64,000 nucleotides of DNA from Verrucomicrobiales bacterium (GCA_029213005.1 JARGPI010000030.1:3984-67983); one strand, 5' to 3'; positions 12,788 to 63,941 are shown, numbered from the stretch's first letter. Program-made: numbers and translations. The notes: generated from the letters alone by a model not told the origin.

Positions 12788-12844
12788 TGTACAGGGTACA
12801 GTCTGAAAGTGTACCCTGTACAGTCGCTGATCGTACCCGGTACA
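12788..12844. repeat. TGTAC-N3-GTACA doublet repeat, locus 1 (plus a degenerate third unit)
   Basis: TGTACAGGGTACA 12788-12800, 9-nt spacer, TGTACCCTGTACA 12810-12822, then CGTACCCGGTACA 12832-12844. Confidence 0.9.
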
Positions 12845-12903
12845 ACGCAACTTTTCATTAACTCGGTTGACTCCTCGACCGTGTAGAGTAGGAAGCAGAC
12901 ATT

Positions 12904-13989
12904 ATGGGATCAATTTTCGGCGAACTTTTCCGTATCTCGACGTGGGGCGAATCTCACGGCGGTGGTGTCGGTGTGGTCGTGGACGGCTGTCCACCTCTTA
13001 TTTCGTTAACAGAGAAAGACATACAAATCGATCTGGACCGACGTCGTCCCGGTCAGAGTGAAATCACAACTCCCCGGAACGAAGCCGATCAGGCGGAGAT
13101 CCTGTCGGGCACTTTTGAGGAGCAAACGCTGGGAACTCCAATCGCGATCCTGGTGCGGAATAAAGATGCCCGCCCCGAAGCCTACTCGGAAATGTCGGAA
13201 AAATTCCGCCCCTCCCATGCTGACTACACTTATCAGGCCAAGTATGGCACCCGTAACTGGCAGGGCGGAGGTCGCTCCAGTGCCCGCGAAACGATTGGCC
13301 GGGTCGCCGCGGCAGCGATCGCAAAAAAGGTCCTGAAAGAGAAATTTGCGCCGGATCTCGAGATCATCGCCTACGTTAAATCGATTCGCGATATCGAGGC
13401 CGATGTCGATCCCAACACCGTTGATTTCGAGACGGTGGAATCAAACATCGTCCGGACAGGCGATCCCAATGCTGTGGAGCCGATGGTCAACCTGGTGAAG
13501 GAAATGCGCGGCGAAGGAAATTCCGTCGGCGGAGTCGTCGAATGCGTGATTCGCAATTGCCCGGTTGGTTTTGGAGCCCCGGTTTTTGATCGTCTCGAAG
13601 CGGATCTCGCCAAAGCGATGCTCAGTTTGCCGGCCACCAAAGGATTTGAAATCGGCTCAGGCTTCGAGGGAACCAAATTAACCGGTCGCGAACACAATGA
13701 CCCTTTCCGGATGGAAGACGGCAAAGTCCGCACCACCAGCAATCGCTCCGGCGGCGTGCAGGGCGGGATCAGCAACGGGGAAAACATCATCTTCCGCGTC
13801 GCTTTCAAACCGACGGCAACCATCATGACTTCGCAGGACACCGTAACCACGCAACTCGAAGACACTGAGCTGAAAGGGCGCGGTCGACACGATCCCTGTG
13901 TGCTGCCCCGGGCGGTTCCGATTGTTGAAGCAATGGCCGCTTTAGTTTTGTGCGATCATGGCTTGCGACAAAAAGCTCAAAATGGTTAA
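12904..13989 (+). CDS. aroC: Chorismate synthase
   Basis: [47 protein letters not shown]. Confidence 0.98.
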
Positions 13990-14024
13990 ATCCCACGTCT
14001 GAACCAAAGTATACAGTAAACTAA

Positions 14025-14882
14025 ATGGCACCGATAATTGCAGTAATTTTAATCACTCTCCTCTATTTCATCTATGCGATGAAGTGGGGTGCGGTTCGCC
14101 TTCTCTCCAGCTCGATCGCTGTCGCTATCGGGATGGCCGTATTTTTCGCCGGAGTCAATCTGGGCCCTCCCTTTGTGGAAAACATGCTCGGTCTCGATCT
14201 GACCTGGGAATTTATTCTCGCCGGATCGGGGATTTTTGCTGTTATCGCCTACTTTATCTCCTGGGCGATCTTCGGATTTATCCTGAAGTTCCTGTTTAAC
14301 CCGGACAGTTTTCTCCATCCGCTCGTCGACGGGGTCCCCGGCGGTATCCTCTCGCTTTTCGCCTCCTTTGTGATGGCCTTCGTCATTTTTACCGGAACCC
14401 GGGTCGCCGGAACCCTCTTTGAGCTCAACTACGTCGCTTCGATCGCGCAACCCGCCATCAGCGATGCCGATCTCTCGAAACTGCCGGAAATGTCGAAGTT
14501 CACCAAATGGAGAAATACCGTCGAGCAAATCCCGATGGTCGCCGATCTGCTCGACAAAATCGACCCCTTCAGCCGTCGCGAAAACCGGAATATCGGCGCT
14601 GTCACGCTTTTTGCCGCGACTCAACCCGCCCGCGAATTCTCCGAAGGCAGCCAGCAAATGGCCAGTATTTTGTCCAATCAGAGAGTCCAGGACCTCATCA
14701 ACAGTGATGAAATGGCCAATCAGTTACGGCTCAAAGATCGCGTCGGCCACATTCTGAGTCCCGATGCAATTGAAGTCGCTGCCGATCCGGAGTTGAAAAA
14801 TCGACTAAAGAACCTGAAAATCGACCGTCACGTCGATGAGTTCATTCAATGGCTCAAGACGAATAAGACACCGAATTTTTAG
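14025..14882 (+). CDS. Membrane protein, possibly CvpA-like
   Basis: Four N-terminal hydrophobic helices with a DxxxGGILSL-type motif, then a soluble C-terminal part; directly upstream of gatB. Confidence 0.5.
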   Translation: MAPIIAVILITLLYFIYAMKWGAVRLLSSSIAVAIGMAVFFAGVNLGPPFVENMLGLDLTWEFILAGSGIFAVIAYFISWAIFGFILKFLFNPDSFLHPLVDGVPGGILSLFASFVMAFVIFTGTRVAGTLFELNYVASIAQPAISDADLSKLPEMSKFTKWRNTVEQIPMVADLLDKIDPFSRRENRNIGAVTLFAATQPAREFSEGSQQMASILSNQRVQDLINSDEMANQLRLKDRVGHILSPDAIEVAADPELKNRLKNLKIDRHVDEFIQWLKTNKTPNF

Positions 14883-14891
14883 AAACTCAGG

Positions 14892-16358
14892 ATGGCCGCG
14901 CCAAAGTATATCGTCAGCATTGGACTGGAAGTACATGTCCAGCTCAAAACCAAAAGTAAAATGTTCTGCGGATGTCCCGTCGCTTTCGGGAACGATCCGA
15001 ACACTCAGACCTGCCCGACCTGTCTGGGATTGCCCGGTGCTCTGCCGGTGCTGAACAAAGGGGCCATCGAGCGCACTATTTTAGCCGGGCAACTCCTCGG
15101 CTGCACCACGCCACCTGTCGTGAAATGGGACCGGAAGAATTACTTCTATCCCGATATGCCGAAAAACTATCAGATCTCGCAGTTCGACCTGCCGCTCTGT
15201 CTCGGCGGAGGCGTTCCGCTCTATGAACTGGCCTACCCGAAAGATCATCAGAAAGATATCGTTTCACCCGGAAAAGTCGTCGGACTGACTCGGATTCACC
15301 TCGAGGAAGACGTCGCAAAATCGACCCACCATCGCGGTGGTTACACCACAATCGACTTCAACCGCGCCGGCACACCTCTAATGGAAATCGTCTCCGAGCC
15401 GGAGATCGACTCCGCAGAAGAAGCCGTCGCCTACCTCAATTCCCTGCGCCAGATCCTCGTCTACAGCGGCGTTTCCGATGCCGACATGGAGAAAGGTCAG
15501 ATGCGGTGCGATGTGAATATTTCCGTTCGTAAAAAGAAGGAAGACCCGCTCGGCACAAAGATCGAACTAAAGAATTTGAACTCCGTATCCGTAGTGCGGA
15601 AGTCTCTTCACTACGAAATCGATCGCCAGATCAGCGAGTATGAAAAGGGAAACAGCCTCATTCAGGCAACCTGGCGCTGGAACGACGAAGTCGGCCAGAC
15701 CGAGCTGATGCGGACCAAGGAAAACGCCGACGACTATCGCTATTTCCCCGACCCCGATCTCCTGCCCGTTAAGACTGAGAAAATGGTCGCGGAAGTTCAG
15801 GCGCATCTTCCGGAACTCCCGCATGAAAAAGTCGAGCGCTTCGAAACCAATTACGAAATCACTCACTACGACGCCTCCGTTCTCGCCAGTGAGATCGAGC
15901 TCGCCAACTACTTTGAGAAAGCCGCTGAAGGCGCCAAAGTGCCCAAGAAAGTCGCCAACTGGGTAATCAATAACCTGCTCGGCGAACTGAAAGAAAACGA
16001 TCTCAACATTTCGGAGTGCCCTATCGCTCCGGAGAAAATCGGTCAGCTTGTCGGCCTTGTTGAAGCGGGGACGATTTCGAATAATCAGGCGAAAGAAGTC
16101 TTCTCCGAGCTGTTTGCCAATCCAGACAAGGAGCCTGCCAAGATCGCAAAAGAGAAAGGATTTGAACCTGCTGATAACAGCGAGATCGAAGGATTTATCG
16201 ACGAAGTTATCGCTGCCAATCCCGGTCCGGCCGGAGAGGTTGCTGAAGGCAACTCGAAAGCGGCCAACTTCCTTACCGGACAGGTCATGAAGATGTCGAG
16301 AGGCAAAGCTAATCCGAAGATGGTCACCGAAACCATTATCGGAAAACTGCAAAGCTAA
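14892..16358 (+). CDS. gatB: Asp/Glu-tRNA amidotransferase subunit B
   Basis: IGLEVHVQL, RKNYFYPD, RIHLEEDVAK, DFNRAGTPLMEIVSEP, MRCDVNIS, DYRYFPDPDL, GQVMKMSRGKANP. Confidence 0.98.
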   Translation: MAAPKYIVSIGLEVHVQLKTKSKMFCGCPVAFGNDPNTQTCPTCLGLPGALPVLNKGAIERTILAGQLLGCTTPPVVKWDRKNYFYPDMPKNYQISQFDLPLCLGGGVPLYELAYPKDHQKDIVSPGKVVGLTRIHLEEDVAKSTHHRGGYTTIDFNRAGTPLMEIVSEPEIDSAEEAVAYLNSLRQILVYSGVSDADMEKGQMRCDVNISVRKKKEDPLGTKIELKNLNSVSVVRKSLHYEIDRQISEYEKGNSLIQATWRWNDEVGQTELMRTKENADDYRYFPDPDLLPVKTEKMVAEVQAHLPELPHEKVERFETNYEITHYDASVLASEIELANYFEKAAEGAKVPKKVANWVINNLLGELKENDLNISECPIAPEKIGQLVGLVEAGTISNNQAKEVFSELFANPDKEPAKIAKEKGFEPADNSEIEGFIDEVIAANPGPAGEVAEGNSKAANFLTGQVMKMSRGKANPKMVTETIIGKLQS

Positions 16359-16374
16359 CCCCGCTGGCAGTGCG

Positions 16375-17109: not shown

Positions 17110-17120
17110 GCCAAACCGGG

Positions 17121-21850: not shown

Positions 21851-21948
21851 GTCGTTCTTTCTGAATTACAAAGCCGGGCCCCGCACAACCGGAGCCGATA
21901 TAACCGGGTATTTGCTATGACTTACCCGGGCAAAGGAGTTTAAGAGGA

Positions 21949-22629
21949 ATGAAATCACTGTTTCTATACGAGGAGATTATGCTCCTGGCCCTCCGGGATG
22001 AGGAAGGGACTTTCTCCGGTGGATTTGTCGAGCTGGCCGTGGCCGGAGCGGTTATGGCTGAATTACTGCTCGAAAACCACGTCTACGTCGCTGAACCGCG
22101 CCGGAAACTGATCGACCACAACGACCCTCCCCCTACCGGCGATCCCATTATCGACGAATGTCTGGAGAAGATCACTTCGGCGAAGCGCCGGGCGGCGCTC
22201 TCCAACTGGGTGCCTCGCCTCTCCCGCATTCCGAAGCTACGGAAAAAGGTCGCCCAGCGTCTCTGCGAACGCGGCATCGTGAAATCGGACGAAGACAAGG
22301 TGTTGTTTGTGTTTCCCCGAACCATTTATCCCGAGATCGACCCCGAGCCTGAGGAGGAGATCATGTCGCGTATCAAAAGTGCCATTTTCGGTAATGACAC
22401 CGATCTCGATCCACGAACCGTGATCCTGATTTCTCTCGCGCACCGGACCGACCTGTTGAGGCACAATCTCGACGACAAAGAGCTGCGCAAACACAAAAAA
22501 CGGATCGAACAGATCATCGAAGGTGAAGCGATGGGGAAGGCCGCTCGCGACATCATCGATGCCTTCGACTCCGCGGCCACCGTAACCGCCTTAATTCCCG
22601 CTCTGATCGCCACGACCGCAGGCTCCTGA
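21949..22629 (+). CDS. GOLPH3/Vps74 (GPP34) family protein
   Basis: LYEEIMLLALRDEEG ... AGAVMAELLL ... PTGDPIIDE ... LCERGIV ... VLFVFP...YP; RBS GGAG/GAGG upstream. Confidence 0.8.
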   Translation: MKSLFLYEEIMLLALRDEEGTFSGGFVELAVAGAVMAELLLENHVYVAEPRRKLIDHNDPPPTGDPIIDECLEKITSAKRRAALSNWVPRLSRIPKLRKKVAQRLCERGIVKSDEDKVLFVFPRTIYPEIDPEPEEEIMSRIKSAIFGNDTDLDPRTVILISLAHRTDLLRHNLDDKELRKHKKRIEQIIEGEAMGKAARDIIDAFDSAATVTALIPALIATTAGS

Positions 22630-22637
22630 TTTCAGAT

Positions 22638-22672
22638 TGTACAGGGTACAATCCGGGACTGTACCCTGTACA
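22638..22672. repeat. TGTAC-N3-GTACA doublet repeat, locus 2
   Basis: TGTACAGGGTACA-atccgggac-TGTACCCTGTACA between two convergent genes. Confidence 0.92.
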
Positions 22673-22753
22673 GAAAAGCGGGAGAAATGATAACCATTCC
22701 TCCCGCTGATGTTGCTGGACTTTAAATTAACCAGCTAGCTCTGCCAATATCAC

Positions 22754-23566
22754 TTACTGGGTAGATGCGGTTTTCGTTGCATTGTTAAGTTCAGCTTCGG
22801 TTTTACTGAGTTCACCAGTCCAGAAAGAATTGGTCTCATTCAGTGAAGCGTCATTGTTCCGGAGGAAAGTGGTTCCCGAATCAAAAGCGGGAGCTTTCTC
22901 CAAACGTTCCTTGTTAACGTCGAGGTAGATTCTCAGGGCAAACTGATCATCGGCATCAACTTCGTTTCTGGCATAAGCATCGGTCTTGTCAGCCTCTTCA
23001 GCATCGATGTCAGATTCCTTCGGCTCAGTTACCTGATTTTTCGTAGCAGCCTCTGCTTCAGCACCAGCTTCGGCGAGTTCTGCATCCGTGTCGTCAACGA
23101 TTGCTTTGGCTTCAGATTCCTCTGCTACCAAGTCAGCATCCTCGTTTTCGGCATCGGTAACTTCATTCTCGATGTCGGTTTCAGTCCGGGTTTCCATAAC
23201 AGGATCAGGCTGATTGTTTTCCTTAACCTTTTTCACTTCGAACTGCTCCCATGGCACTGCCACGTGGCGATCTCCGATTCCAAGGAATCCTCCAACACTT
23301 ACGATGGTGTATTTCACCTGGCCGGTTGCCGGATCAAGCAGTAAGCGATCGACATTCCCGACCTTTTCTTCCGCTTTGTTGTAAACATCGGCCGAGAGCA
23401 GTTTGTTCGAATTGATCATTCCATCAACTGGAGCTCTCACCATTTCGGCGACTGCTTTTTTGTCGGCTTCATACTGTTCAGCATTCTCAGCGGCATCTTG
23501 TCCCTGGACGCTCAATGCGAGTCCGCCCAGTGCTATCATTGTTGTAATGTACTTGTTCATTTTCAT
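22754..23566 (-). CDS. Exported PRC-barrel domain protein with a long acidic insertion
   Basis: Signal peptide; LLSADVYNKAEEKVGNVDRLLLD ... VSVGGFLGIGDRHVAVPW ... LDVNKERLEKAPAF. Confidence 0.85.
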   Translation of the reverse strand: MKMNKYITTMIALGGLALSVQGQDAAENAEQYEADKKAVAEMVRAPVDGMINSNKLLSADVYNKAEEKVGNVDRLLLDPATGQVKYTIVSVGGFLGIGDRHVAVPWEQFEVKKVKENNQPDPVMETRTETDIENEVTDAENEDADLVAEESEAKAIVDDTDAELAEAGAEAEAATKNQVTEPKESDIDAEEADKTDAYARNEVDADDQFALRIYLDVNKERLEKAPAFDSGTTFLRNNDASLNETNSFWTGELSKTEAELNNATKTASTQ

Positions 23567-34725: not shown

Positions 34726-37700
34726 TCAGCGTCTCCCCCTGTTCCAGCCCAGCGTGGAAATCCGGAAGGAGATCAGACCGAACAAATCGGTGAGATCATC
34801 CAGAAAACAATAAATCGCGGGGATAAAAACCAGGGTCAGAACCGTGGAAAAGGAAAGTCCGCATACCACCACCACTGCGAGCGGTCGATACAACTCGGCG
34901 CCGGTTCCGTATCCGAGAGCCAGAGGAAACATTCCCAGAACGGTGGTCAAAGTCGTCATCAAAATCGGCCTCAGCCGAGTCAACCCGGCATTGATGATTG
35001 CCTCGTTCCTCGGTTGGCCCCGCGCCCGGAGTATATTGATGTAGTCGATCAAAATAATCGCATTGTTTACCACGATCCCCGCCAGCATAATGATACCGAT
35101 CATCGCTGTCAGCGAAATCAACTCCCCACTTAAATTCAAGCCCAGCACCGCTCCGATCAGTGACAACGGAACGGAAAACATAATCGTAAAAGGATGTATC
35201 AAACTCTCAAACTGACTCGCCATAATCATATAGACCAAAACGATCGCGACAATGAAGGCGTACACGAGATACCCGAGCGATTCGTGCATCGCTGCGGAGG
35301 AACCACCGAGCACCGCGCGATAGCCGGATTCCCGATAGGGAGCCACAGCCCGGGCGACCGGTTCCGCGAGCCGAGCCTCCACTTCCTCCAGCGAAAGGTT
35401 GTCTTTATCAATAAAAATCGGCACCGTCATAATCCGCTCCCGTTCCTCACGGTTAATCAGTCCGGGGCCGGCCTGCGATTCCACCGTCGCGACATCTCTC
35501 AATTTCCAGACCTGCCCGGTTACCGGCGAAATGATATCGAGATTAAGTAGATCATTCTCGCTATTCACCTTCGCTGCTGAAGAGAGCATAATATCATAGG
35601 AGGTATTGTTGATTTCTATATCAGTCACCTGATTCCCTGCTACTGCAGCTTCAACCTGATCCGCAATATCACTTAACGTCAGTCCGCGATCCGCGGCTGC
35701 CTCCCGTTTCACTTTCAGGACCCGCTCCGGCATCCCTTTTGGAATTTGCCCCAAACTGGTGATTCCATAGTTAGCTCGTTTTTCCGAAAGCTCCCCCAAG
35801 AGCCCACCTTCCCCATCGGCTCCAGTCAGAATTTCCCGAATCGTTACCAGATCCGGGCCGGTTAATTTTAAAAGGATATCTCCCTGACTGGTTCCGAGCA
35901 GGTTCTGAATCGGGTTAAGGCTCTGAAGCTGGAAATCGAGAAACGTATCGCGCAACCCGGGATCGTTGGCGAGTGCATCCATCACCGGCGCCAGTTCTTT
36001 GACCGGCTGAACCTGACCATCCATCACCTCCGCTTTATCAAAACTGGCGATCACCCTGACCTCACGGGGCGACACCGAGACGCTGTAGTGACTTAAGGTC
36101 CCGATCCCCCCCAGTTTCGTTTCAATAGCGCGGGCCGAAAGATCTACGGCATCGAGAGTCTGCCCCGCCCTCGCCCGCAACGCCAACTGATAGCTCTCCA
36201 CTTTCGTCTCAGGGAAAAACTCAGCGGAGGGAAGCTGGTAGATCGTTACCACAAACGCGAGTGCCATAATCAGGATCAAAAGCACCCGCACTGCTACCGA
36301 TTCGATCACCGTTTTCAGAATGAGTCGATACCCGTTCGATACCGCTTTTGCGAACTGAACGAGGGGCCACAGCACAAATTGAATGGCGCGGTTGAGCCAA
36401 TCGAAGACCGCGAATTTCATACCCATCACTTTGAAAGTGAGCATTGGTATCAAGGTGAAAGCCACTACCATCGAAAAGATCAAAGTGTAGGTAATCACCC
36501 AGGAAAGATCGCGAAAAATCTGTCCGGCAATCCCGGGAACAAACACCACCGGCAAAAATACCGCGATCGTTGTCAGGGTGCTCGCCCAGACCGCAGGACC
36601 GATCTCTGCAATTGCCTCCATCACCGCTTTTTTGAACCTCCGTTCGTGCGACATCTTCTGGAAGATCGCTTCGGTCACCACAATCGCATTATCGACCACC
36701 ATGCCGACAGCGAGGGTCAAACCGGCCATCGAGAAAATATTGATACTGATCTTCCCCGCATAAAACAGGGAAAACGTCGCGATCACCGACACCGGCATCG
36801 CCAACACCACGATAAAGGTCGACTGGAACCGGCCCAGAAACACCAGTAGAATGATGCTGGCTAAAATCAGCCCCATCAATCCATTGGACCGCACCATATC
36901 GAGCGATTCCTTGATGAAAACCGACTCGTCGTAGGCAATGGTGATTTGCAGAGGTGGTGCCAGCTTGGTCAGCTCCTCTGCCGAAACATTCGGCGCATCG
37001 CGCCGGGTCAGATCAACGAGGACTTCGGCCTGCACCTCACGGGCGGAACTACAGATTTCAACCGAGTTTCCCCCACCCTTTTTATAAATCGAAACCTCGA
37101 CTGATGACGTCGCAAGGTCTGCGGCACGGGTCTTCAACCGGGCGTAACTCGCCGCACTTTTTTCAACCTCGCGGGAGCTAACCTGCGCCACCTCGCCAAG
37201 CCGCCGAATTTCACTACCCGGCGGACTGACAATAAGCAGGGACAGATTCTCGATCGATACTGCGCCCACAGTCCGAATGAGAAAAAGACTGTCACCTTCC
37301 TGTAGTTTCCCGCCCCGTTGAGACAGGTTTTCCCGTCCCAGCGCATCCCGCACCGCAAGTATAGAAAGACCCACAGCGCGTAACTTATCAGGATCGGCCC
37401 GGACCTGAACTTCATATTCTTTCCCGCCCTGCACCTCAACCGCCGCCACTCCGTTGAGCCGTTCCAGGCGGGGCTTAATGGTACGCAGTACGACATCTCT
37501 CAATTCATCGGGATGAACCGGATTCGACGCAGCGGGGTTCGATGCGATATTTAACACCATCACCGCACCGGAGGAGGAGGCACCTTTGAGAACGATCGGC
37601 TCCTCAGCTTCCTCCGGCAGATCGCTTCGAACCTCATCCAGCTTGGCCCTCACATCCATCGCGGCGAGATCCATATTGGTTCCCCATTGAAACGTCAGAT

Positions 37701-37968
37701 TGATCCGGCTGCGCTCATCTCCCGATGTCGAAACCATCGAAGTCGCCCCCTTCACCGTGCCCAGCTTTTCTTCAATCTTCCGGGTCACATTTTGTTCGAT
37801 TTCACTACTGGCCGCGCCCTCGTATTGTGTTTCGATCATCAGCTCCGGCTGGCTGACATCGGGGAACAAATCCTGAGGAAGTCGCTGATAGGCCGCTCCG
37901 CCAAACAATATCATCAGAAGCGTCAACATAAGGACGCTTACCGGACGATTGACGGAAAATTCTTTCAT
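34726..37968 (-). CDS. RND efflux permease (AcrB/MdtB-like), subunit B
   Basis: FSVNRPV, DLFPDVSQP, GMVVDNAIVV, GIVVNNAIILID, RLRPILMTTLTT; ATG at 37968 preferred over track start 38055. Confidence 0.95.
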   Translation of the reverse strand: MKEFSVNRPVSVLMLTLLMILFGGAAYQRLPQDLFPDVSQPELMIETQYEGAASSEIEQNVTRKIEEKLGTVKGATSMVSTSGDERSRINLTFQWGTNMDLAAMDVRAKLDEVRSDLPEEAEEPIVLKGASSSGAVMVLNIASNPAASNPVHPDELRDVVLRTIKPRLERLNGVAAVEVQGGKEYEVQVRADPDKLRAVGLSILAVRDALGRENLSQRGGKLQEGDSLFLIRTVGAVSIENLSLLIVSPPGSEIRRLGEVAQVSSREVEKSAASYARLKTRAADLATSSVEVSIYKKGGGNSVEICSSAREVQAEVLVDLTRRDAPNVSAEELTKLAPPLQITIAYDESVFIKESLDMVRSNGLMGLILASIILLVFLGRFQSTFIVVLAMPVSVIATFSLFYAGKISINIFSMAGLTLAVGMVVDNAIVVTEAIFQKMSHERRFKKAVMEAIAEIGPAVWASTLTTIAVFLPVVFVPGIAGQIFRDLSWVITYTLIFSMVVAFTLIPMLTFKVMGMKFAVFDWLNRAIQFVLWPLVQFAKAVSNGYRLILKTVIESVAVRVLLILIMALAFVVTIYQLPSAEFFPETKVESYQLALRARAGQTLDAVDLSARAIETKLGGIGTLSHYSVSVSPREVRVIASFDKAEVMDGQVQPVKELAPVMDALANDPGLRDTFLDFQLQSLNPIQNLLGTSQGDILLKLTGPDLVTIREILTGADGEGGLLGELSEKRANYGITSLGQIPKGMPERVLKVKREAAADRGLTLSDIADQVEAAVAGNQVTDIEINNTSYDIMLSSAAKVNSENDLLNLDIISPVTGQVWKLRDVATVESQAGPGLINREERERIMTVPIFIDKDNLSLEEVEARLAEPVARAVAPYRESGYRAVLGGSSAAMHESLGYLVYAFIVAIVLVYMIMASQFESLIHPFTIMFSVPLSLIGAVLGLNLSGELISLTAMIGIIMLAGIVVNNAIILIDYINILRARGQPRNEAIINAGLTRLRPILMTTLTTVLGMFPLALGYGTGAELYRPLAVVVVCGLSFSTVLTLVFIPAIYCFLDDLTDLFGLISFRISTLGWNRGRR

Positions 37969-37989
37969 AAAATCAGCGAGATAAAGGGA

Positions 37990-38335
37990 CGAAAGTTCGA
38001 GACGGTACAGGGTCAAACATTTCGCACCTGTGATTCCAGAGATCAAAAAGCCCAAAGGGCTGATTCAGTCTAGCCCGGGGCAGCGCCCCGGGTTTGGATA
38101 CTAATAAATTTTCAGCGCTGAAGGCGCGATTCAAGCTGGCCACCACGATGGGGCGTACAAACAAATTTGGATTTCGTATCACCCTCTTTACCGCTGTTTG
38201 AATCGCACTTTCAGCGCTTTTTCTGAGGGGCGTCCGAATTCCCGGGGCGCTGCCCCGGGCTGGTTTGAATCGCGCCTTTAGCGCTGCGAAAGTTCGAGAC
38301 TGTACAGGGTACAGTCCAAAAGTGTACAGGGTACA
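37990..38335. repeat. Composite palindromic element (A-B-A ... A'-B'-A', 38049-38285) bracketed by 24-bp direct repeats, followed by TGTAC-N3-GTACA doublet locus 3
   Basis: B unit AGCCCGGGGCAGCGCCCCGGG at 38072-38092 and its exact inverse at 38241-38261; A units AGCGCTGAAGGCGCGATTCAA-like at 38049, 38114, 38198(-), 38265(-); CGAAAGTTCGAGAC(G/T)GTACAGGGT at 37990-38013 and 38287-38310; TGTACAGGGTACA at 38301 and 38323. Confidence 0.88.
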
Positions 38336-38352
38336 ATCGGTAAAACTCATCA

Positions 38353-38652
38353 CTAAAAGAAGTCGTCGACCTGCGATACCACGCAGCGCGTTGCCGGATC
38401 CCGCCCCATCCGTTTGGTTACATCCTGAAACCGTCGTACGGCGGCGACGACCCGCCCGGCAGCCTCTTCATCGATAATTGTAACAATCACATTATTGATC
38501 CCCGGCCCGATAGCATTGTTCAGCTTTTCACCGGATTCACCTTTTCCGGTGACGCCGTGAAAGCGGGTGTAGTTATCTACCTTGGCCTGTCGGAGAATCA
38601 TCATGATCTCATTCTCATTTGATTCCTCGAATATTATTTCCACACGCTTCAT
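38353..38652 (-). CDS. PII-like protein (PG0541-type, transporter-associated)
   Basis: MKRVEII ... YTRFHGVTGKGESG ... GPGINNVIVTII ... V.AVRRF; PII-like size (99 aa); start overlaps the RND-A stop (ATGA). Confidence 0.75.
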   Translation of the reverse strand: MKRVEIIFEESNENEIMMILRQAKVDNYTRFHGVTGKGESGEKLNNAIGPGINNVIVTIIDEEAAGRVVAAVRRFQDVTKRMGRDPATRCVVSQVDDFF

Positions 38653-41600
38653 ATATTTCCCCCCAGCATTCGATCTTTAGCGACTGAAAAACGAAATCCC
38701 AGTGACGATGAAAATTCGGCCAACTCATCCAGCAATGAATAGAGAATCGGCAAGGCGAGCAGCGTCAATGGAGTCGACGCGATAAGACCGCCCACCACAA
38801 CCGCCGCCACACCCCGGTAAAGTTCCGTTCCTTCGCCCACTCCGAAAATCAAGGGCACCATCCCGAGAATCGATGTCGTGCTGGTAATCAGAATGCTGCG
38901 CAGCTTCCGTACCGAACCCTGGATAATGGCATCGTCCCGCTCCACACCACGCTGCCGGAGAATATTGATATATTCGACGAGGATAATTCCGTTATTCACC
39001 ACCACCCCGCAAAGAATTACCGCCCCCACGAAGGCCCCGAGGCTGAAAAGTTCGCCGGTGAGATTCAGCATCAAAACCGAACCCGCCGCGGCCAGTGGAA
39101 CCGTTACCATGATCGCGAGCGGATCGAGAAATTTTTCGAACTGGCTGCACATAATCATATAGATCAAAGCCACCGAAATCAAAAAGGCGAAAAACGCATC
39201 TGAAAATGATTCTTTAGTATCTTTGGCCTCACTTTCGATTTGATAGCCAAAGGAATCGTTAAATCCGGGGATGAGTGAAAGCGCCTTTTCAATTTGGGCG
39301 GTCACATCCCCAATTGTCTCACCCGTAACATCATAGGGCGCATAGTGACATTCCAGATTAACGGTCGGTTTCCGGTTGGTCCGCTCCAAAACAATACTGC
39401 CCTCTCCCGGTGAGGGATTCACCACCGCAACTTCCCTGATTTCGTGAAGCAAACCGGTGGAAGCGGAGCGAACCCGGAGGCTCTCCAGCGATTCCGGGGT
39501 GAAATTGCCTTTCGACTCTCCATTACTGTCCTCCAGAAACACCGTGACATCCGTCTCGCCCCCGTTCTCCAAAACCGTTGCGGCCTTCACTCCATAAACC
39601 GACGCTCTGACCGTGTCTGATATTTGCCGGGTGGTTAACCCTTTCTCATTCAGCTCCACCCGTTTCGGCAGTGTAGAGATTTCGATCTCTTTTGGCGTTT
39701 CGTTGATCCGGATTCGCTGATAGATCGCACTGGGTATCGTTTTGAAGACAGGTAGAATCCGTTCCTCCACCTCGGTCTGGAGCGCTTTGAGCTGGCTCGA
39801 TTCATCAAGATCCGACCACGGTTTCCGGGAATACACTTTAAACACAATCGGAGCTGTGGTACCTCCGCGAATTTTGTCTACCAGCGAGACGAAGTTTTTG
39901 CCTTTCAAATCCGGTGTAGAATCGCAACCCTCGCGAATCTGCTGTACACATCTTGATAGAGAGGACCATTGCTGAGGGCGCATTTTCGGTCCTCCTTCAA
40001 TTTCCCGGTTAGGGTAAAGCCTCACGAATAATTTACCTTCGTCATTTCGAATATCTGCTGAGATCGATTTTACAAAATCACGATAGGGAGCGGTTTGCAG
40101 TAATTCTTCGACGCGCTTTAAGCGTTCATCCACGTAGTCGAGCGTCACTCCTGCCGGGGCCTCAAACCGGATCCACAGTTCATCGACATTACCCTGAGGA
40201 AGAAAGCCCCGACCGGGCAAAAATTTCAATGAGAGCAAGGATATCCCGATGAGAAAAACCAATATACCGATTTTGAGAGGCCGCCCCCGAAGCAAAAGCT
40301 TCAAAAGATCGGAGAGTGAATTCTCACTGAATCGATCCCATCGGCACATCGCTTTCTCTATTTTCTGAAAAGGTCGCAACACCACTCCGAGCCATCCGGT
40401 CGCCACCTTTTGGTCCGCCGACTTGGGAGAAAGAATCCGGGCACTGACCATGGGGATAAAGACAATTCCCACTACCATACTCATCAAAACCGACCAGATA
40501 ATGGCGTGGGCGAGACTTTTGAATACCTCCTGCATCAACCCCGGTATAAACAGGATCGGCAGAAACACCGCGACGCTCGTCATTGTCGAGCTGAAGATCC
40601 CCATCGCCACTTCCGAAGCTCCCCGGATCGCCGCCTCTTTCGGGTTTTGACCGAGGCTCAGTTGTTTATAGATCGATTCGATTAACACGATGGAACTGTC
40701 GAGCGTTAAACCGACAGCCAGCCCCAGCCCGCCAAGGGTCAGAATATTCCGACTGATATCAAATCCGTTCAAAAAGATCGCGGCAGACATCATACTAATC
40801 GGCGTTGCCAGCACAACGATAACCGCCGCCCGGAGATCGCGAAGGAACAGAAACAACAGCAACCCTGCGAGGCCGCCCCCCTGCACGATCGAACTGATCA
40901 CAAGTGACTGGGAACTGATCACATACTCGGAATCGTCCTGAGCGATCTGGACTTTGATACCACGTTTTTCCAATACGGGGCTCAATCGTTCCAACTCTTT
41001 CTTAATGCGTTCAACTACCGTAACGACCGACGCGTCCGACGATTTCTTTATCGATAAACCAACCGAAGGCGCGCCATCGATCCGGGCATAGCTCCGTGTT
41101 TCTTTATTAGTCCGGATTACCTCTGCCACATCGCGAATCCTGATTGGACTTTGACCCGGAGGATTTGCCACAATCAAATTTTCGAGATCAGCTTCGGTAT
41201 TGGCTTTCCCCAGAATCCGAAGGGACGCCACCTTTCCATCTTCGATCTCTATTGTGCCACCTTTCCGGTTTTTCGATTCGATCGAGACGGCGCGGATCAA
41301 ACTGAGAACGGTTAATTGATACTGAGCGAGTTTATCCCGGTCACCGACTACCCGGTATTCCGGATCGGTTCCCCCGACGACTTCGACTTCGCCAACCCCG
41401 GCGAGTCTTTCCAGCCCGGGTTTTATCATATCATCAGCCAGCCCCCGCAGGTCCTCAGTCGATAGACCACCACCGACGATATCGAACCGGAAAACCGGAG
41501 CACTCGACGGATCGAACTTCTTGATTAAGGGGCGTGACGCGGCATCGGGGAGATTCAGAGCATTCACCAGCTCCCTCACTTCGATCTCTGCGGCCCGGAC

Positions 41601-41900
41601 ATCGGTTCCCCAATCCAACTGTAGAATGAGGCGGCTCTCCCCCTCCAGCGAAATCGAATTCAATGAGACCAGATTACTGACTCCATTGAGACTTTCCTCG
41701 AGAGGCAGGGTCACTTCTTTATGAACCTTTTCGGGTGAGGTCTTCGGAACTTCCGTTAGCACTACGAGAGTCGGTATAGAAATACTGGGAAGTAACTCCA
41801 CTTCCATCCGGTTGAGTGAAAAGATCCCTCCCATGACCAGAGCCAGCATCAACATGCAGGTCGTCACCGGATGATTAACACTGAACCGAATGATATTCAT
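38649..41900 (-). CDS. RND efflux permease (AcrB/MdtC-like), subunit A
   Basis: FSVNHPV, ELLPSISIP, GLTLDSSIVLIE, GVVVNNGIILVE, KLRSILITSTT. Confidence 0.95.
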   Translation of the reverse strand: MNIIRFSVNHPVTTCMLMLALVMGGIFSLNRMEVELLPSISIPTLVVLTEVPKTSPEKVHKEVTLPLEESLNGVSNLVSLNSISLEGESRLILQLDWGTDVRAAEIEVRELVNALNLPDAASRPLIKKFDPSSAPVFRFDIVGGGLSTEDLRGLADDMIKPGLERLAGVGEVEVVGGTDPEYRVVGDRDKLAQYQLTVLSLIRAVSIESKNRKGGTIEIEDGKVASLRILGKANTEADLENLIVANPPGQSPIRIRDVAEVIRTNKETRSYARIDGAPSVGLSIKKSSDASVVTVVERIKKELERLSPVLEKRGIKVQIAQDDSEYVISSQSLVISSIVQGGGLAGLLLFLFLRDLRAAVIVVLATPISMMSAAIFLNGFDISRNILTLGGLGLAVGLTLDSSIVLIESIYKQLSLGQNPKEAAIRGASEVAMGIFSSTMTSVAVFLPILFIPGLMQEVFKSLAHAIIWSVLMSMVVGIVFIPMVSARILSPKSADQKVATGWLGVVLRPFQKIEKAMCRWDRFSENSLSDLLKLLLRGRPLKIGILVFLIGISLLSLKFLPGRGFLPQGNVDELWIRFEAPAGVTLDYVDERLKRVEELLQTAPYRDFVKSISADIRNDEGKLFVRLYPNREIEGGPKMRPQQWSSLSRCVQQIREGCDSTPDLKGKNFVSLVDKIRGGTTAPIVFKVYSRKPWSDLDESSQLKALQTEVEERILPVFKTIPSAIYQRIRINETPKEIEISTLPKRVELNEKGLTTRQISDTVRASVYGVKAATVLENGGETDVTVFLEDSNGESKGNFTPESLESLRVRSASTGLLHEIREVAVVNPSPGEGSIVLERTNRKPTVNLECHYAPYDVTGETIGDVTAQIEKALSLIPGFNDSFGYQIESEAKDTKESFSDAFFAFLISVALIYMIMCSQFEKFLDPLAIMVTVPLAAAGSVLMLNLTGELFSLGAFVGAVILCGVVVNNGIILVEYINILRQRGVERDDAIIQGSVRKLRSILITSTTSILGMVPLIFGVGEGTELYRGVAAVVVGGLIASTPLTLLALPILYSLLDELAEFSSSLGFRFSVAKDRMLGGNI

Positions 41901-53426: not shown

Positions 53427-54206
53427 TTGCGCATGACCAAAGACACCTCACCATCCCGGCAAAACCCGATCGTGAATCTGGTTGGGTTTGCGATGATTCT
53501 ACTGTTCGCCTGGTTTCTGAAATGGGAATCGGCTGACTTGATCTGGAGTCTCTGGCTGGGCAGTCTGCTGATCGGATATTTCACCATCGTGGGGGCAGTC
53601 CTGTCCGGCCTCATTGTGGTCGGCAAAATCATTACCACCGATGCCGGGGAGGGGCTCGCGACGGGAAAGCAGCGGGCCCTTCTGGGGATTGGAGCGATTG
53701 GAGTCGGCCTGTTCTTTCTTGCCTTCTTCTCCTTTCACTTCTGTGCGTTTCACGCGGGTCACGCTATGTTTCTCAAGGAGTTTTTCCCTATCGATGGCAT
53801 CGATTTGGATTCGTCAGGTTTATCGAATGCCTTCATGAATCCGTTACTACTTTTGAAAATTGCGATTACCAAGATCGCTCCTTTCTATATCTGGTTTCTG
53901 ATTCCCGCCCTACTGCTCGATTGGAAAAAGGTAGCAGGACCGATATTAATCGCCACCAATTTTAAACCCGACGAATCCGGTAAAAAGATGGATCTGTCAG
54001 GGATGCCATCCGATCCGTTTTTCGGTCCCTACAAGAATGTGATCAAAATGCATATCCTGATCTTCTTTTTCGCCGGAGCCCTTTTCCTCAAACTGGATAA
54101 CTTCTTTGTCTACGCCATTGTTTATGCCGTTTATTTCTTTCCGTGGTCGACGCTGAAGCTTAAGAAGTCGAATAATACAGCCCCGACCGCCGAAGTTACG
54201 TCGTAG
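53427..54206 (+). CDS. Membrane protein, DUF6498-like
   Basis: W...DLIWSLW ... FFSFHFCAFHAGH ... PYKNVIKMHILIFF. Confidence 0.65.
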   Translation: MRMTKDTSPSRQNPIVNLVGFAMILLFAWFLKWESADLIWSLWLGSLLIGYFTIVGAVLSGLIVVGKIITTDAGEGLATGKQRALLGIGAIGVGLFFLAFFSFHFCAFHAGHAMFLKEFFPIDGIDLDSSGLSNAFMNPLLLLKIAITKIAPFYIWFLIPALLLDWKKVAGPILIATNFKPDESGKKMDLSGMPSDPFFGPYKNVIKMHILIFFFAGALFLKLDNFFVYAIVYAVYFFPWSTLKLKKSNNTAPTAEVTS

Positions 54207-54246
54207 CACCGCTTTTTCGGTTCAAACCGCGACGCCCAAACACGAC

Positions 54247-54281
54247 TGTACCCTGTACAATCCGGGACTGTACAGGGTACA
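54247..54281. repeat. TGTAC-N3-GTACA doublet repeat, locus 4
   Basis: TGTACCCTGTACA-atccgggac-TGTACAGGGTACA between convergent genes; spacer identical to locus 2 but both cores flipped. Confidence 0.92.
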
Positions 54282-54315
54282 AAATGGTATCGTTGACTGA
54301 ATTGACTACCTGAAA

Positions 54316-56730
<2,415 letters not shown>

Positions 56731-57147: not shown

Positions 57148-57162
57148 AAGGCCAGACTTAAA

Positions 57163-57189: not shown

Positions 57190-57396
57190 CACCAGTCTGA
57201 ACATCATTGCGTGATGCTTCAGCGGAAGCTTCAGAAAAGGGATCGCCGTCGGGAAAAGGCACATGATGAGAGGTAACTGTCTCACCCTTAGCCGCCCTCT
57301 ATCCGGATAAATCACTCAAGCTGAATAAAATTGACTTAGCTTCTGCCCCGAGGATAAAACCTGCGGAGTGTTGCACCCTTTACCCAAAACAAAAAC

Positions 57397-59175: not shown

Positions 59176-59329
59176 ACCGCTATACTGATAGTTTTTTGAG
59201 AGGCTGTAAAGAAGCAGAGGTTCTCCCCTGACAAAACTTAACCCTTCATCCCGCGATCCCGTAGATCGCAAATTTTTGGGCCGATTTGGATGAAACCGGA
59301 GGTTAGAGTGTGTCCCTGAGCTATTTTTC

Positions 59330-59863: not shown

Positions 59864-59901
59864 GCCGATATTATTTCTTCCGGGAGTAAAGCTCAAAATC
59901 A

Positions 59902-61260: not shown

Positions 61261-61275
61261 TTTTTCTAATTTTCT

Positions 61276-63075
61276 ATGCCTACTATTTCTATATCTGAAG
61301 CAAAGGACGACTACGATGTCGTCATCGTTGGGTCGGGCGCAGGCGGGGGCCAGATGGCCTATTCGCTGACACTGGCCGGATTAAAATGCGTCATGCTGGA
61401 GGCGGGACGTTCCTACAATCCCCAGACTGAAACACCCATGTTTCAGCGGGGCGATCAGGCGCCGCTGGGAGGTGCATCAACTCCCGACAAACCGTTTGGA
61501 TTCTTCGACGCCACGATCGACGGAGGTTGGCAGGTTCCCAACGAACCCTACACTCAGGCCAGTGACAAACCGGAAGAGCAGTTCATGTGGTGGAGAGCCC
61601 GCATGCTGGGCGGCCGAACCAACCATTGGGGGCGAATCTCCCTGCGAAATGGTCCCTACGATTTCAAACCCTATAGTCGAGACGGGCTCGGCTTCGACTG
61701 GCCGGTTTCCTACAATGACATCGCTCCATACTATACCAAAGTCGAACAATTGATCGGCGTTTACGGAACCAACGAAGGTATGGAAAATACACCGGATTCG
61801 CCCCCCGGAGTGCTGCAACCGCCTCCCAAAGGACGAATTGGAGACCTACTCACTCAGAAAGCCGGTAAAAAAGTCGGGGTTCCCGTGGTGCCGATTCACC
61901 GCGCGGTATTGACCAAACAGCAGGACGCTGATTCTCTCCCGGCGAAACTTCACCCTGGGAACAAAAAGGCTCAGAAAATCGTCGGCGACTCGATGCGCTC
62001 CCGCGCTGCCTGTTTCTGGGCAACGCCCTGTGGACGGGGTTGTAGCATCCGGGCCAATTACCAGAGCACCACGGTTCACCTACCACCGGCGCTCGCGACA
62101 GGGAATCTCGACATCATTCCCGATGCGCATGCCAGAGAGGTCATTATCGATAAAAACGGCAAAGCGAGCGGAGTCCTGTTTATCGACAAAACCACCGGTC
62201 AAGAAGAGCGGATCAAAGGGAAAGCGGTGATTCTTGCAGCCAGCAGCGGCGAGACGGTTCGGATTCTCCTGAACTCTAAAAACGGCCAATTCCCCGACGG
62301 GGTGGCCAATCGAAGCGGCCTCGTGGGAAAATATATCATGGACACAGTCGGGTCGGATATGAGAGGCCAGATCCCGGCGCTCGAAAATCTACCGCCGCAC
62401 AATGATGACGGTGCCGGAGGCAGTCATTTCTATAGTCCCTGGTGGCTCTACGGAGACCAGAAAGCAGGTAAAATGGATTTTGCCCGCGGGTATCATATCG
62501 AGATCGGAGGAACCCGGTCTATGCCGCGGGGTAACAGCCCGATTCCCGGCAAATACGTAAAAGGACTCTTTGGAACCAAATTAAAAGAGGAGGCAAGACG
62601 ATACTACGGCTCCTTCATTTCTTTGGCCTGTCGGGGTGAAATGATACCGAACGAAGATTCCTTCGCTGAACTGGATCCCGATGTGAAAGACAAATGGGGA
62701 ATCCCCGTTATGAAATGGCACTGGAAATGGAGTGACCACGAAATCAATATGTCGAACCACGCTCAACGAACTTTCGAAGAAATGATCGGTGCGATGGGCG
62801 GAACTCCGATTAACGGAGGTAACAAAACCGGGCGGGAAACGATTTTAAAAGGCGGTCAGGTCATTCACGAAGTGGGCGGCGCCATCATGGGAACCGATCC
62901 CGAAAAATCGGTCTGTAATCAATGGAACCAAACCTGGGATGTCGATAACCTGTTTCTTTGCGACGGCTCACCGTTCGCCTCAAACGCCGATAAGAACCCA
63001 ACCGAAACCATCATGGCTCTAGCGTGGCGCTGTGCCGATCACATCATCGCAGAAAGCAAGAAAGGAAATCTCTAG
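61276..63075 (+). CDS. GMC family oxidoreductase
   Basis: DVVIVGSGAGG FAD motif, RMLGGRTNHWG, IHEVGGAIMG, WDVDNLFLCDGS, NPTETIMALAWR. Confidence 0.93.
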   Translation: MPTISISEAKDDYDVVIVGSGAGGGQMAYSLTLAGLKCVMLEAGRSYNPQTETPMFQRGDQAPLGGASTPDKPFGFFDATIDGGWQVPNEPYTQASDKPEEQFMWWRARMLGGRTNHWGRISLRNGPYDFKPYSRDGLGFDWPVSYNDIAPYYTKVEQLIGVYGTNEGMENTPDSPPGVLQPPPKGRIGDLLTQKAGKKVGVPVVPIHRAVLTKQQDADSLPAKLHPGNKKAQKIVGDSMRSRAACFWATPCGRGCSIRANYQSTTVHLPPALATGNLDIIPDAHAREVIIDKNGKASGVLFIDKTTGQEERIKGKAVILAASSGETVRILLNSKNGQFPDGVANRSGLVGKYIMDTVGSDMRGQIPALENLPPHNDDGAGGSHFYSPWWLYGDQKAGKMDFARGYHIEIGGTRSMPRGNSPIPGKYVKGLFGTKLKEEARRYYGSFISLACRGEMIPNEDSFAELDPDVKDKWGIPVMKWHWKWSDHEINMSNHAQRTFEEMIGAMGGTPINGGNKTGRETILKGGQVIHEVGGAIMGTDPEKSVCNQWNQTWDVDNLFLCDGSPFASNADKNPTETIMALAWRCADHIIAESKKGNL

Positions 63076-63077
63076 TC

Positions 63078-63728
63078 ATGAACTCAACTGAAAACAAAAA
63101 CCGTCTTCCCCGCCGCCAGGTATTGCAGTGGATCGCCGCTGCTACCGCTACCGGAACCGTGGGAATCCCGGGCTTACCAGCTCTCGGCCAGACTCCCGGA
63201 ACCGAAGGCTACGGAACCGATCCCAACCTCGTCGCACCTCACGAGCCGGGCGGCTATTGGCCCCTGACCTTCTCTGAGCCGGATCAAAAAGCGGTAGCTG
63301 CACTGGCCGATGTGATTCTCCCCGCCGACGATCTGGGACCTGCCGCAAGCGCGGTCCGGGTGCCGGAATACATCGACGAATGGGTCAGCGCTCCCTATCC
63401 CGCTCAGAAAAATGATCGCAAAGTGTTTATCCCCGGGCTGGAAGCTCTTCACGCCTACACCGGAAAGAAATTTGGAAAGCGGTTTGAGGAATTGTCCGAC
63501 GCTGAAAAAATTGAGGTCTGCGAAAGTATCACAAAGCCCGAGCCGGATGCCAAAGCTCTGTCCGGTTTCTTCCACAAATTCACCAGTATTGCCATGGGCG
63601 CCTATTACTCCACTCAGGAAGGCTGGAAAGCGATCGGCTATCACGGGAATATACCTACGGTCACCTTCGACGGCCCACCACCTGAAGTTCTTGATCGAGT
63701 TGGAGTTGAGCAGACAGTTAACGACTAA
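63078..63728 (+). CDS. Gluconate 2-dehydrogenase subunit 3 family, Tat-exported partner of the GMC enzyme
   Basis: PRRQVL Tat-like motif; LADVILP, AVRVPEYIDEW, FEEL, AYYSTQEGW..IGY; ATG 63078. Confidence 0.88.
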   Translation: MNSTENKNRLPRRQVLQWIAAATATGTVGIPGLPALGQTPGTEGYGTDPNLVAPHEPGGYWPLTFSEPDQKAVAALADVILPADDLGPAASAVRVPEYIDEWVSAPYPAQKNDRKVFIPGLEALHAYTGKKFGKRFEELSDAEKIEVCESITKPEPDAKALSGFFHKFTSIAMGAYYSTQEGWKAIGYHGNIPTVTFDGPPPEVLDRVGVEQTVND

Positions 63729-63906
63729 AATAAGACAGCGGAATGACATTAAGCGGCGTCCCCGGTAGCAAATGACCGGGGATTCGCCCGTTTGATGCTG
63801 CAAACTGGATCGACACGTTTCTGCGCGTCTTGAAGAACTCCAATCCGCCCTTACAGAGTGGCCCGGCAGAGCATCCGGGAAGCGATAACCACACAAAAAC
63901 CGAAAT

Positions 63907-63941
63907 CGTACAGGGTACAAAGCGAAACGGTACCCTGTACA
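63907..63941. repeat. TGTAC-N3-GTACA doublet repeat, locus 5
   Basis: CGTACAGGGTACA-aagcgaaac-GGTACCCTGTACA. Confidence 0.85.

Follow-up and report, generated by a model that had tools for sequence, protein, structure and literature searches.

Dispersed palindromic doublets with a 22-bp period in a Verrucomicrobiales genome: a candidate repeat family of unusual REP type

The stretch of 64,000 nucleotides analysed here, referred to as the window, comes from a Verrucomicrobiales bacterium (GCA_029213005.1, JARGPI010000030.1:3984-67983; C35:3984-67983 in our contig numbering) and contains five arrays of a short palindrome, TGTAC-N3-GTACA, repeated at a fixed period of 22 bp. The assembly to which it belongs (7.35 Mb in 83 contigs, 52% G+C, 96% complete) holds about 500 such arrays, most of them doublets. 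We see an even chance that these doublets are a dispersed repeat family of the repetitive extragenic palindrome/bacterial interspersed mosaic element (REP/BIME) type, of an unusual kind, which is mainly made and homogenised by templated conversion. The roughly 500 existing copies would serve as templates for patch conversion, by which new arrays are made and old ones homogenised, instead of moving by cut-and-paste. An enzyme of the HUH Y1 type, from the RayT/IS200 class (RayT, REP-associated tyrosine transposase), would probably assist; in Clostridia a RayT gene has related units at its flanks. An earlier note on the window had offered a REP-like family as one of several readings, and this has become the best-supported filing: the arrays are numerous, lineage-specific and intergenic with a bias to the 3´ ends of genes, their clostridial relatives are linked to RayT, and an IS200-type element targets the units.

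Units, arrays and their distribution

The unit is a 19-bp palindrome, GAyTGTAC-(AGG/CCT)-GTACArTC, which together with three variable nucleotides gives the period of 22 bp. The earlier note had described five loci of paired 13-bp units; all five exist, the first being a triplet and the true unit being the longer palindrome. The note's proposal depended on a high copy number and on a 22-bp spacing peak. Copies are not few, as 864 sites in the genome match GTACNNNGTAC (800 with AGG or CCT as core), and the peak is sharp, with 392 neighbour spacings of exact sites at 22 bp and almost nothing besides (4 at 44 bp and 3 others). When up to two mismatches are allowed, 994 units are found against 44 for a reversed-pattern control, 485 neighbour spacings being exactly 22 bp, and the units group into 509 arrays (81 singles, 373 doublets, 53 triplets and 2 quadruplets). 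For the doublet as a whole, mismatch classes 0 to 8 hold 219, 150, 91, 42, 47, 24, 36, 69 and 180 sites, whereas the control has none in classes 0 to 6 and then 2 and 44. Within the window, TGTACNNNGTACA has 8 exact matches compared with 0 in 100 shuffles, and a GTAC-N3-GTAC pair phased at 22 bp matches 6 times where 0 are expected. No Rfam family matched within the window, and the literature on the exact unit sequences yielded nothing relevant. The five arrays, for which no strand is assigned, and the neighbouring open reading frames (ORFs) are:

Array 1, 12785..12847, from pattern matches in the window: triplet with 22-bp period, units at 12788-12800 (AGG), 12810-12822 (CCT) and 12832-12844 (degenerate CGTACCCGGTACA, core CCG), flanked by the co-directional plus-strand ORFs 11321-12613 and 12904-13989
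Array 2, 22635..22675: AGG/CCT doublet (spacer ATCCGGGAC) in a gap of convergent ORFs, beginning 9 nt past the stop of plus-strand ORF 21949-22629 and followed by minus-strand ORF 22754-23566
Array 3, 38298..38338: doublet AGG/AGG inside a minus-strand RND operon, neighboured by ORF 38649-41900 and ORF 34726-38055
Array 4, 54244..54284: CCT/AGG doublet (spacer ATCCGGGAC), likewise in a gap of convergent ORFs (plus strand 53427-54206, minus strand 54316-56700)
Array 5, 63904..63944: AGG/CCT doublet whose units each deviate at one position of the outer T/A (CGTACAGGGTACA and GGTACCCTGTACA), between co-directional genes (plus-strand ORF ending at 63728 or 63768, next ATG at about 63975)

The core configurations are those read in the earlier note (loci 1, 2 and 5 have AGG/CCT, locus 3 has AGG/AGG and locus 4 has CCT/AGG), which was also right about the common spacer of loci 2 and 4; its two loci between convergent genes correspond to 2 and 4 on the ORF map. 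Genome-wide, ATCCGGGAC is the commonest spacer, with 6 copies. The intervals between the arrays of the window are 9.9, 15.7, 15.9 and 9.7 kb. Close to array 1, at 12630-12745, we also observed a tract of AAGAGC hexamers (aagagcaagagcaagagc...) opposite an imperfect inverse further upstream (ctcttgttctc...ctgctcttgatcttgctc); AAGAGC-like tracts occur on other contigs as well as in the congeners G017, G447 and G467, and a tandem with a 24-bp period lies at C6:449875-449993.

Placement relative to genes was determined for the 428 arrays of at least two units with a crude longest-ORF map of the fragmented assembly (5480 ORFs, 92% of the genome):

Between co-directional genes: 156 arrays, 1719 background gaps
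Between convergent genes: 72 arrays, 408 background gaps
Between divergent genes: 45 arrays, 815 background gaps
Within 5´ ORF extensions (probably intergenic DNA upstream of the gene): 75 arrays, no background value
Inside ORFs of the longest-ORF map: 61 arrays, no background value

Relative to the background, arrays are enriched in convergent gaps and depleted in divergent ones. In co-directional gaps 100 arrays are closer to the upstream stop and 56 closer to the downstream start, and the median array position is 25 nt past a stop codon. This placement is relevant to the idea that the doublets are transcription-factor operators of a large regulon. A palindrome with two helically phased sites is typical operator architecture, and a single look-alike palindrome in a member of the Dermatophilaceae lies between TetR and a divergent gene. 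However, a regulon does not account for a share of convergent-gene arrays well above and a share of divergent-gene arrays below background, for the position behind stop codons, for about 500 arrays with 35 inside long ORFs, or for the absence of the family from 55 congeners, so that operators seem very improbable. The argument of the earlier note against simple promoter operators, which was built on two convergent loci, is thereby borne out by 72 convergent-gene arrays and the 3´-end bias. The Dermatophilaceae look-alike, a perfect 35-bp palindrome at 5023-5057 of a metagenome-assembled genome (MAG; L013), was rejected as a family member and is unrelated. In a 3.1-kb contig of Nibrella saemangeumensis (L021), 22-bp direct repeats were seen at 2068-2102 between Rep-like and Mob-like genes; this look-alike doublet was likewise rejected as unrelated, since it consists of plasmid iteron-like direct repeats on a plasmid-like contig.

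The family was found in three sister species only, with about 430, 50 and 12 arrays. There were no copies among 40 relatives, 24 of them from the same genus, and the other 55 congeners, aligning at about 72-74%, showed no family-type matches. The second carrier, G453 (the same as G434, MAG JARGOZ01), has 50 doublets in DNA that is about 82% identical to this genome; the third, a MAG labelled Verrucomicrobiales (G437), has 12 doublets and is probably the sister species G461. Orthologous sites were compared at four intragenic and about ten intergenic positions, the sister genomes being MAGs, with the following results from the comparison with G453:

C8 against G453: units perfectly conserved, spacers and flanks diverged
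C55 against G453: units perfectly conserved, spacer and flanks scarcely alignable
C57: CCG/CGG in G453 and CCT/AGG here, a concerted, symmetric change
C21: AGG/CCG versus CCT/AGG, both cores flipped and the spacer still similar
C13 and window position 38301 against G453: core orientation differs; at the latter (array 3) G453 has a doublet in reverse orientation (TGTACCCTGTTA twice) without the mobile element present here
C67: array degenerate in this genome

Since arrays occupy orthologous sites in G453, the family is older than the split of both species. The units are either kept constant or homogenised again and again, and the cores do switch orientation in the course of evolution. Genome-wide, the cores of the doublets are CCT/AGG in 126 cases, CCT/CCT in 94, AGG/CCT in 65 and AGG/AGG in 64, and their orientation has no relation to the direction of transcription.

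The earlier note had compared the units to recombination sites, and it would be possible to read them as sites at which a recombinase inverts the 3-bp core. Inverted arms around an asymmetric core, the presence of all four configurations and the differing cores at orthologous sites of the sister species agree with this. As far as the sequences can tell, however, the orthologous differences show flips over evolutionary time and not a switch, and an inversion of 3 bp, unrelated in its orientation to gene direction, has no evident read-out. Neither a tyrosine nor a serine recombinase gene, nor a RAYT such as the note had asked to look for, is flanked by arrays in this genome, where 17 distinct Y1-domain hits were checked for nearby units. 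About 1000 such sites would also open massive scope for rearrangement. Tyrosine-recombinase sites have a spacer of 6-8 bp, and neither these nor the sites of serine recombinases resemble arms of 8 bp around a core of 3 bp. Moreover, the arms are self-complementary, which accounts for flips without an enzyme: they may permit templating or pairing in either orientation, so that no recombinase would be needed. With such arms, the direction in which a symmetric unit lies can be seen from its core alone. In plastids, 'flip-flop' inversions of hairpin loops are known in which the few bases between perfect arms occur in either orientation among relatives, without a dedicated recombinase. Those take place in the hairpins of organelle non-coding DNA, unlike the arrays described here, for which the mechanism is a proposal. 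Recombination sites with invertible cores are thus hardly credible.

Y1 enzymes, insertion elements and a clostridial relative

A related family, GTACCNGGTAC, is present in Clostridia with periods of 12 and 22 bp and 142-255 units per genome. Herbinix and related Clostridiales MAGs have the unit GTACC(G/C)GGTAC, one lineage GTRCCWGGYAC; counted as GTRCCNGGYAC, there are 142-255 units in each of four clostridial genomes versus 0-3 in controls. Both families have in common a motif, TGTACm-s-kGTACA, and a period of 22 bp, and their spacers resemble each other. A directional spacer like that of the clostridial 22-mers was ruled out here, because the spacer is symmetric, RTC-nnn-GAY, for all four core configurations.

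In three of the four clostridial genomes arrays are located just upstream of the single Y1 gene, the locus (purC, Y1, HTH/Uma2) being syntenic, and in two of them, Herbinix and a Clostridiales MAG, also directly downstream. The encoded protein clears the NCBIfam cut-off for REP-associated tyrosine transposases (87.4 bits versus 80), and its relatives have been named RayT by several sources. Abundant REPs have previously been tied to RAYT groups 2 and 3 only (PMC5581495), and the clostridial family is therefore noteworthy in itself: with hundreds of units flanking a RayT-type gene, it takes REP-RayT biology beyond Proteobacteria.

A search of this genome with PF01797 reported 18 matches, of which 17 distinct hits were examined for nearby units. 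The sole Y1 gene adjoining units (C56:31953-32297) encodes a TnpA of the IS200/IS605 type, which scores 67.1 bits on NF033573 (cut-off 55) and 88 bits on PF01797. It is part of a 724-bp IS200-type element, C56:31705-32428, with the ends AACATTTCGCA...TGCGAAATGTT, the only complete member. The element ends share an inverted terminus of 11-13 bp, AACATTTCGCA, which is common to miniature inverted-repeat transposable elements (MITEs) of about 280 bp that are deletion derivatives, to a second MITE family and to two elements that break contigs. A unit adjoins 47 of the 62 RACATTTCGCA termini. All complete copies (8/8) are flanked by direct repeats of 7 bp that correspond to the middle of the unit (ACAGGGT or ACCCTGT), in the arrangement TGTACAGGGT / element / ACAGGGTACA. 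This is compatible with a 7-bp duplication and equally with insertion in the manner of IS200, 3´ of ACAGGGT, by an element whose right end has a target copy of its own. In one MITE family, a hand tally of 19 termini gave about 14 with the core in the same orientation relative to the element, which would suit a strand-specific recognition of a single-stranded target. In a phylum-wide scan the element terminus was found in this genome only. One of the MITEs lies in the window, next to array 3:

MITE, 38014..38286, plus strand: 273 bp, non-autonomous, a deletion derivative of the C56 IS200-type element, with the left terminus CAAACATTTCGCACC; it interrupts a unit whose remnant GGTACAGGGT (38004-38013) stays at the left
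Direct repeat of 24 bp, CGAAAGTTCGAGAC(G/T)GTACAGGGT, left copy 37990..38013 and right copy 38287-38310, plus strand: brackets the MITE in the RND operon

This 24-bp repeat is far longer than the 7-bp repeat seen elsewhere, and part of it (CGAAAGTT) is similar to the end of a MITE.

At thirteen contig ends the sequence breaks off after about 45-50 nt of the two contig-breaking elements, whose terminus, GTCA(G/A)ACATTTCGCA, is located in a unit. These ends were observed as type A on C6 (1-75), C15, C24, C28, C37, C42 and C72 and as type B on C9, C10, C19, C41, C54 and C78. Since about 45 nt are identical at every contig end, these elements are either symmetric or have long terminal inverted repeats. 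The assembly lacks their interiors, for which two metagenome scans gave no match. Insertion sequences that seek the units as targets thus break assemblies.

One could also regard the doublets themselves as ordinary MITEs that a DDE transposase mobilises by cut- or copy-and-paste. The high copy number, the intergenic location and the insertion sequences at contig ends beside units would agree with such a mobility. On the other hand, flanking direct repeats are at chance level at every array boundary, leaving no sign of a target-site duplication, and apart from the palindrome itself there are no terminal inverted repeats. Intragenic arrays add no length in a DUF1553 and a PBP1C-like gene (see below), and the sole complete element encodes an IS200-type Y1 enzyme and not a DDE transposase. 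Furthermore, G453 has its doublets and none of the AACATTTCGCA elements, from which it follows that these elements exploit the units secondarily and did not give rise to the family. DDE-moved MITEs are therefore improbable. A TA-duplicating MITE of the IS630/Tc1 type, or its excision footprint, was likewise rejected, because the core is direct and not inverted across the elements and the doublets are without flanking duplications.

The other Y1 genes were rejected as cognate enzymes, since each bears its own, different flanking palindromes:

C54: MPQSL type
C82 and C41: NLPHW type
C36 and C67: about 350 aa
C1: truncated gene
Multi-copy element of 1.63 kb

Two of these loci resemble REP-RAYT pairs of their own. 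At C82:21675-22373 the NLPHW-type gene lies between GCGGACAGGAGTGTCCGC palindromes, and at C54:31533-31877 the MPQSL-type, IS200-like gene lies between CCCGGGGTAGCC...GGCAACCCCGGG and AATCCCTTTGGGAT palindromes, an arrangement conserved in G453. The 1.63-kb element (C61:60310-61943) is present in at least seven copies (also on C11, C8, C77, C12, C75 and C37) that are 94-96% identical; it encodes a protein of 350-395 aa with a partial Y1_Tnp domain, has the ends AAAAAGCGAGGCTCATAATAAGAAAAGA and short tandem duplications, and is unrelated to the TGTAC units.

Origin in place, regular spacing and possible binding sites

Inside ORFs of at least 300 aa, 35 of the 428 arrays were found in frame, 13 of them in ORFs of at least 1000 aa; the giant array-bearing ORFs include some resembling polyketide synthases (PKS). 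Read directly from the sequence, the unit is free of stop codons in all six frames. Large proteins, PKS-like ones included, receive in-frame peptides from the units, for example VQGT and CTGY. At C68:91698, C10:15720 and C20:83449 in-frame doublets were seen in PKS-like and giant (13,586-aa) proteins, in the linkers between domains, where they add peptides, for example TVPCTIEKCTGYS directly past the ketosynthase (KS) motif GGTNVHLILEEAP. Four intragenic arrays were compared with orthologues:

DUF1553 protein, C82:20960: five repeat-free orthologues, 0 nt length difference over 215 nt; tttcaacagggggcagccgttgacccgggcctcctggaacgtgat in G464, ttTGTACAGGGTACAgtcgtggacCGTACCCTGTACAatcgcgat in this genome
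PBP1C-like protein, C28:8440: 0 nt length change against G453 and G461; tCAACAGGGTACAgtcgatgatCGTACCCTGTTTG in G461, CAACAGGGTTCAgtgtccgacTCAACCCTGTTTG in G020, TGTACAGGGTACAgtcgaagacCGTACCCTGTACA in this genome
Oxoprolinase-like loop, C43:198532: four units in G453, the look-alike CAACAGGGTCAAgtgatcggctTAACCCTGTTGA in the repeat-free G020, no net gain
C57:38140: 21 nt longer than G461 and G462, in a variable proline-rich linker

In the PBP1C-like gene, seven substitutions separate the array from its counterpart. Every one of them leads toward the consensus, some lie side by side (CA to GT, TTG to ACA), and in the protein Q is replaced by V, F by Y and G by S. A CAAC-N3-GTTG sister family of the congeners was considered as a source of the look-alikes and rejected, as no matches were found in 113 loci; the look-alikes are therefore chance or codon-driven similarities. 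In three of the four cases, intragenic arrays thus overwrite existing similar sequence instead of inserting into it, and the base-for-base replacement in conserved genes points to templated conversion, not transposition. This result applies to the intragenic arrays; the flanks of the intergenic ones are too diverged for their mode of origin to be read.

Along the chromosome the arrays are evenly distributed. The 379 inter-array intervals have a mean of 15.5 kb, a median of 13.8 kb and a coefficient of variation (CV) of 0.48, and none is shorter than 500 bp; random placement would give a CV near 1 and about 12 such intervals. Contig breaks at random should shorten exponential intervals without lowering the CV.

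Regular spacing and an origin in place are the hallmarks of a system under drive or selection, and for this reason another explanation has to be taken seriously, namely that the arrays are binding sites gained by molecular drive or chromosome-scale selection and not a mobile element. Arrays would then arise in place from chance look-alikes, and the association with transposases would be secondary. In one version the motif would resemble an uptake signal, and preferential uptake and recombination would spread mutations toward it; in another it would be the regularly placed site of a nucleoid, topology or condensin-type protein. Apart from the spacing and the unchanged length of coding-region arrays, this explanation is favoured by the lack of target-site duplications, by the restriction of the motif to close relatives with very different copy numbers, by an orientation that is neutral to transcription, by the long tail of degenerate sites above control and by units that are free of stop codons in six frames. 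The half-sites vary independently, as they would for a dimer on double-stranded DNA, and the phasing of 22 bp corresponds to two helical turns. It is opposed by the length of the motif, which specifies at least 26 bases compared with 9-12 in known uptake sequences, and by the avoidance of genes, with about 8% of the arrays in the 73% of the genome that lies under long ORFs. The clustered, multi-nucleotide substitutions in the PBP1C-like gene look more like one templated event than like stepwise mutation, and the RayT-flanking arrays in Clostridia are left unexplained. To our knowledge, there is no report of sequence-specific competence uptake in Verrucomicrobia, which speaks against the uptake version. 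On balance, we regard binding sites gained by drive or selection as somewhat unlikely. The earlier note had also proposed an array for a nucleoid protein; the independent half-sites, the two-turn phasing and the spacing of about 15 kb agree with that part of it, whereas no candidate binding protein was identified.

Several observations weigh against a REP/BIME-type family. The absence of net insertion in three of the four intragenic arrays, together with the regular spacing, is not predicted by a simple model of selfish REPINs (doublets of REPs that form hairpins). The hairpin itself is doubtful as a substrate. Folding computations give -5.5 kcal/mol for the 19-bp consensus, -1.5 kcal/mol for the 13-mer alone and -12.9 kcal/mol for the 13-bp stem of an inverted-core doublet such as array 2 in single-stranded form. 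However, doublets of the hairpin-forming, inverted-core type are not clearly preferred (191 versus 158 direct). Position +/-1 is Watson-Crick paired in 226 of 629 units where 267 are expected, and as the stem extension does not covary, most units are limited to a 5-bp hairpin (-1.5 kcal/mol) and an extended hairpin is not supported as the selected structure. The weakness of the hairpin argues that double-stranded half-sites may be what is read. A RayT-type gene flanked by arrays is lacking among the 17 Y1-domain hits of this assembly, 96% complete in its 83 contigs, as well as among the 24 Y1 loci fetched from the sisters G453 and G461. The one gene that adjoins units is of the IS200 type, and its element family is absent from G453, which still has its 50 doublets. 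In Clostridia, one of the four genomes has no array beside the Y1 gene, and since the locus is syntenic across genomes, the link between arrays and RayT is essentially one evolutionary observation. Homology between the verrucomicrobial and the clostridial families would have to be deduced from motif, period and similar spacers. Finally, the consensus has neither the GTAG nor the CGTC tag that belongs to the REP definition (PMC3733652).

Relation to known systems and meaning

The closest parallels to the candidate REP/BIME-type family are the REP/BIME and REPIN-RAYT systems (E. coli PU/REP; Pseudomonas fluorescens; PMC3116915, PMC5581495), which are likewise short palindromes in high copy number, mainly arranged as doublets. 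They are also intergenic with a 3´-end bias, lineage-specific and persistent over long vertical descent, and have no target-site duplication; the single-copy RayT-type gene beside the clostridial arrays is a further likeness. Unlike those, the unit described here is a true 19-bp palindrome that is asymmetric in its 3-bp core alone, with a stem extension that does not covary, and its rigid period of 22 bp (12 bp in Clostridia) contrasts with the variable spacers of 20-100 bp. Direct doublets are about as frequent as inverted ones, the Y1 hits of this genome include no RayT with units at its flanks, and the regularity of about 15 kb and the origin in place without added length have no counterpart there.

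Within the same phylum, intragenic REPs and REP dimers are known from Opitutus terrae (PMC3733652). These GTAG-tagged repeats and the Rickettsia palindromic elements (PMC3733652) resemble the arrays in forming closely spaced dimers and in having many in-frame copies inside protein-coding genes, where they encode 20-30 extra residues. They are described as insertions that break up or lengthen ORFs, whereas three of the four intragenic arrays examined here add no residues. The sequence class differs too, the GTAG tag being absent from the family. The IS200-type element and its derivatives can be compared with the insertion sequences IS1397, ISKpn1, ISPpu9 and ISPpu10, which target REPs (PMC8450116) at a fixed position inside the unit, as seen here in the 47 of 62 termini that adjoin one. 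It differs from these in being an IS200-type (Y1 HUH) element with MITE derivatives and a 7-bp repeat of the unit centre, and in that at least two further elements with unassembled interiors share the terminus.

The DNA uptake sequences (DUS) of Neisseria and the uptake signal sequences (USS) of Pasteurellaceae are another parallel. They exist as species-specific dialects in hundreds to thousands of copies, in both orientations and spaced more evenly than random, are often paired past genes, and arise by substitution without indels, also within genes. Their length is 9-12 bp compared with the 41 bp of a doublet, and their coding share is far larger. Moreover, they depend on a competence receptor and have no association with HUH transposases.

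As double-stranded DNA, a unit would probably bind a dimeric protein, and with the period of 22 bp the two dimers of a doublet would sit on the same helical face. The regularity of about 15 kb suggests that the host uses the sites at chromosome scale, possibly for topology or domains or for insulation at 3´ ends. A tentative, rather unlikely extension of these ideas is that the 41-bp doublet is written and not inserted, i.e. that conversion or drive overwrites look-alikes that arose by chance, those in essential genes not excepted, and in this way builds a lattice of putative two-dimer binding sites with a mesh of about 15 kb.

How repeats of the REP type spread is an unsettled question, and the comparison with repeat-free congeners is unusually clean in this lineage. 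If the doublets are indeed written into a lattice, they would represent an uptake-signal-like or chromosome-domain system new to Verrucomicrobia, and enzymes of the RayT/IS200 type would be either the writers of these sites or their mere exploiters.

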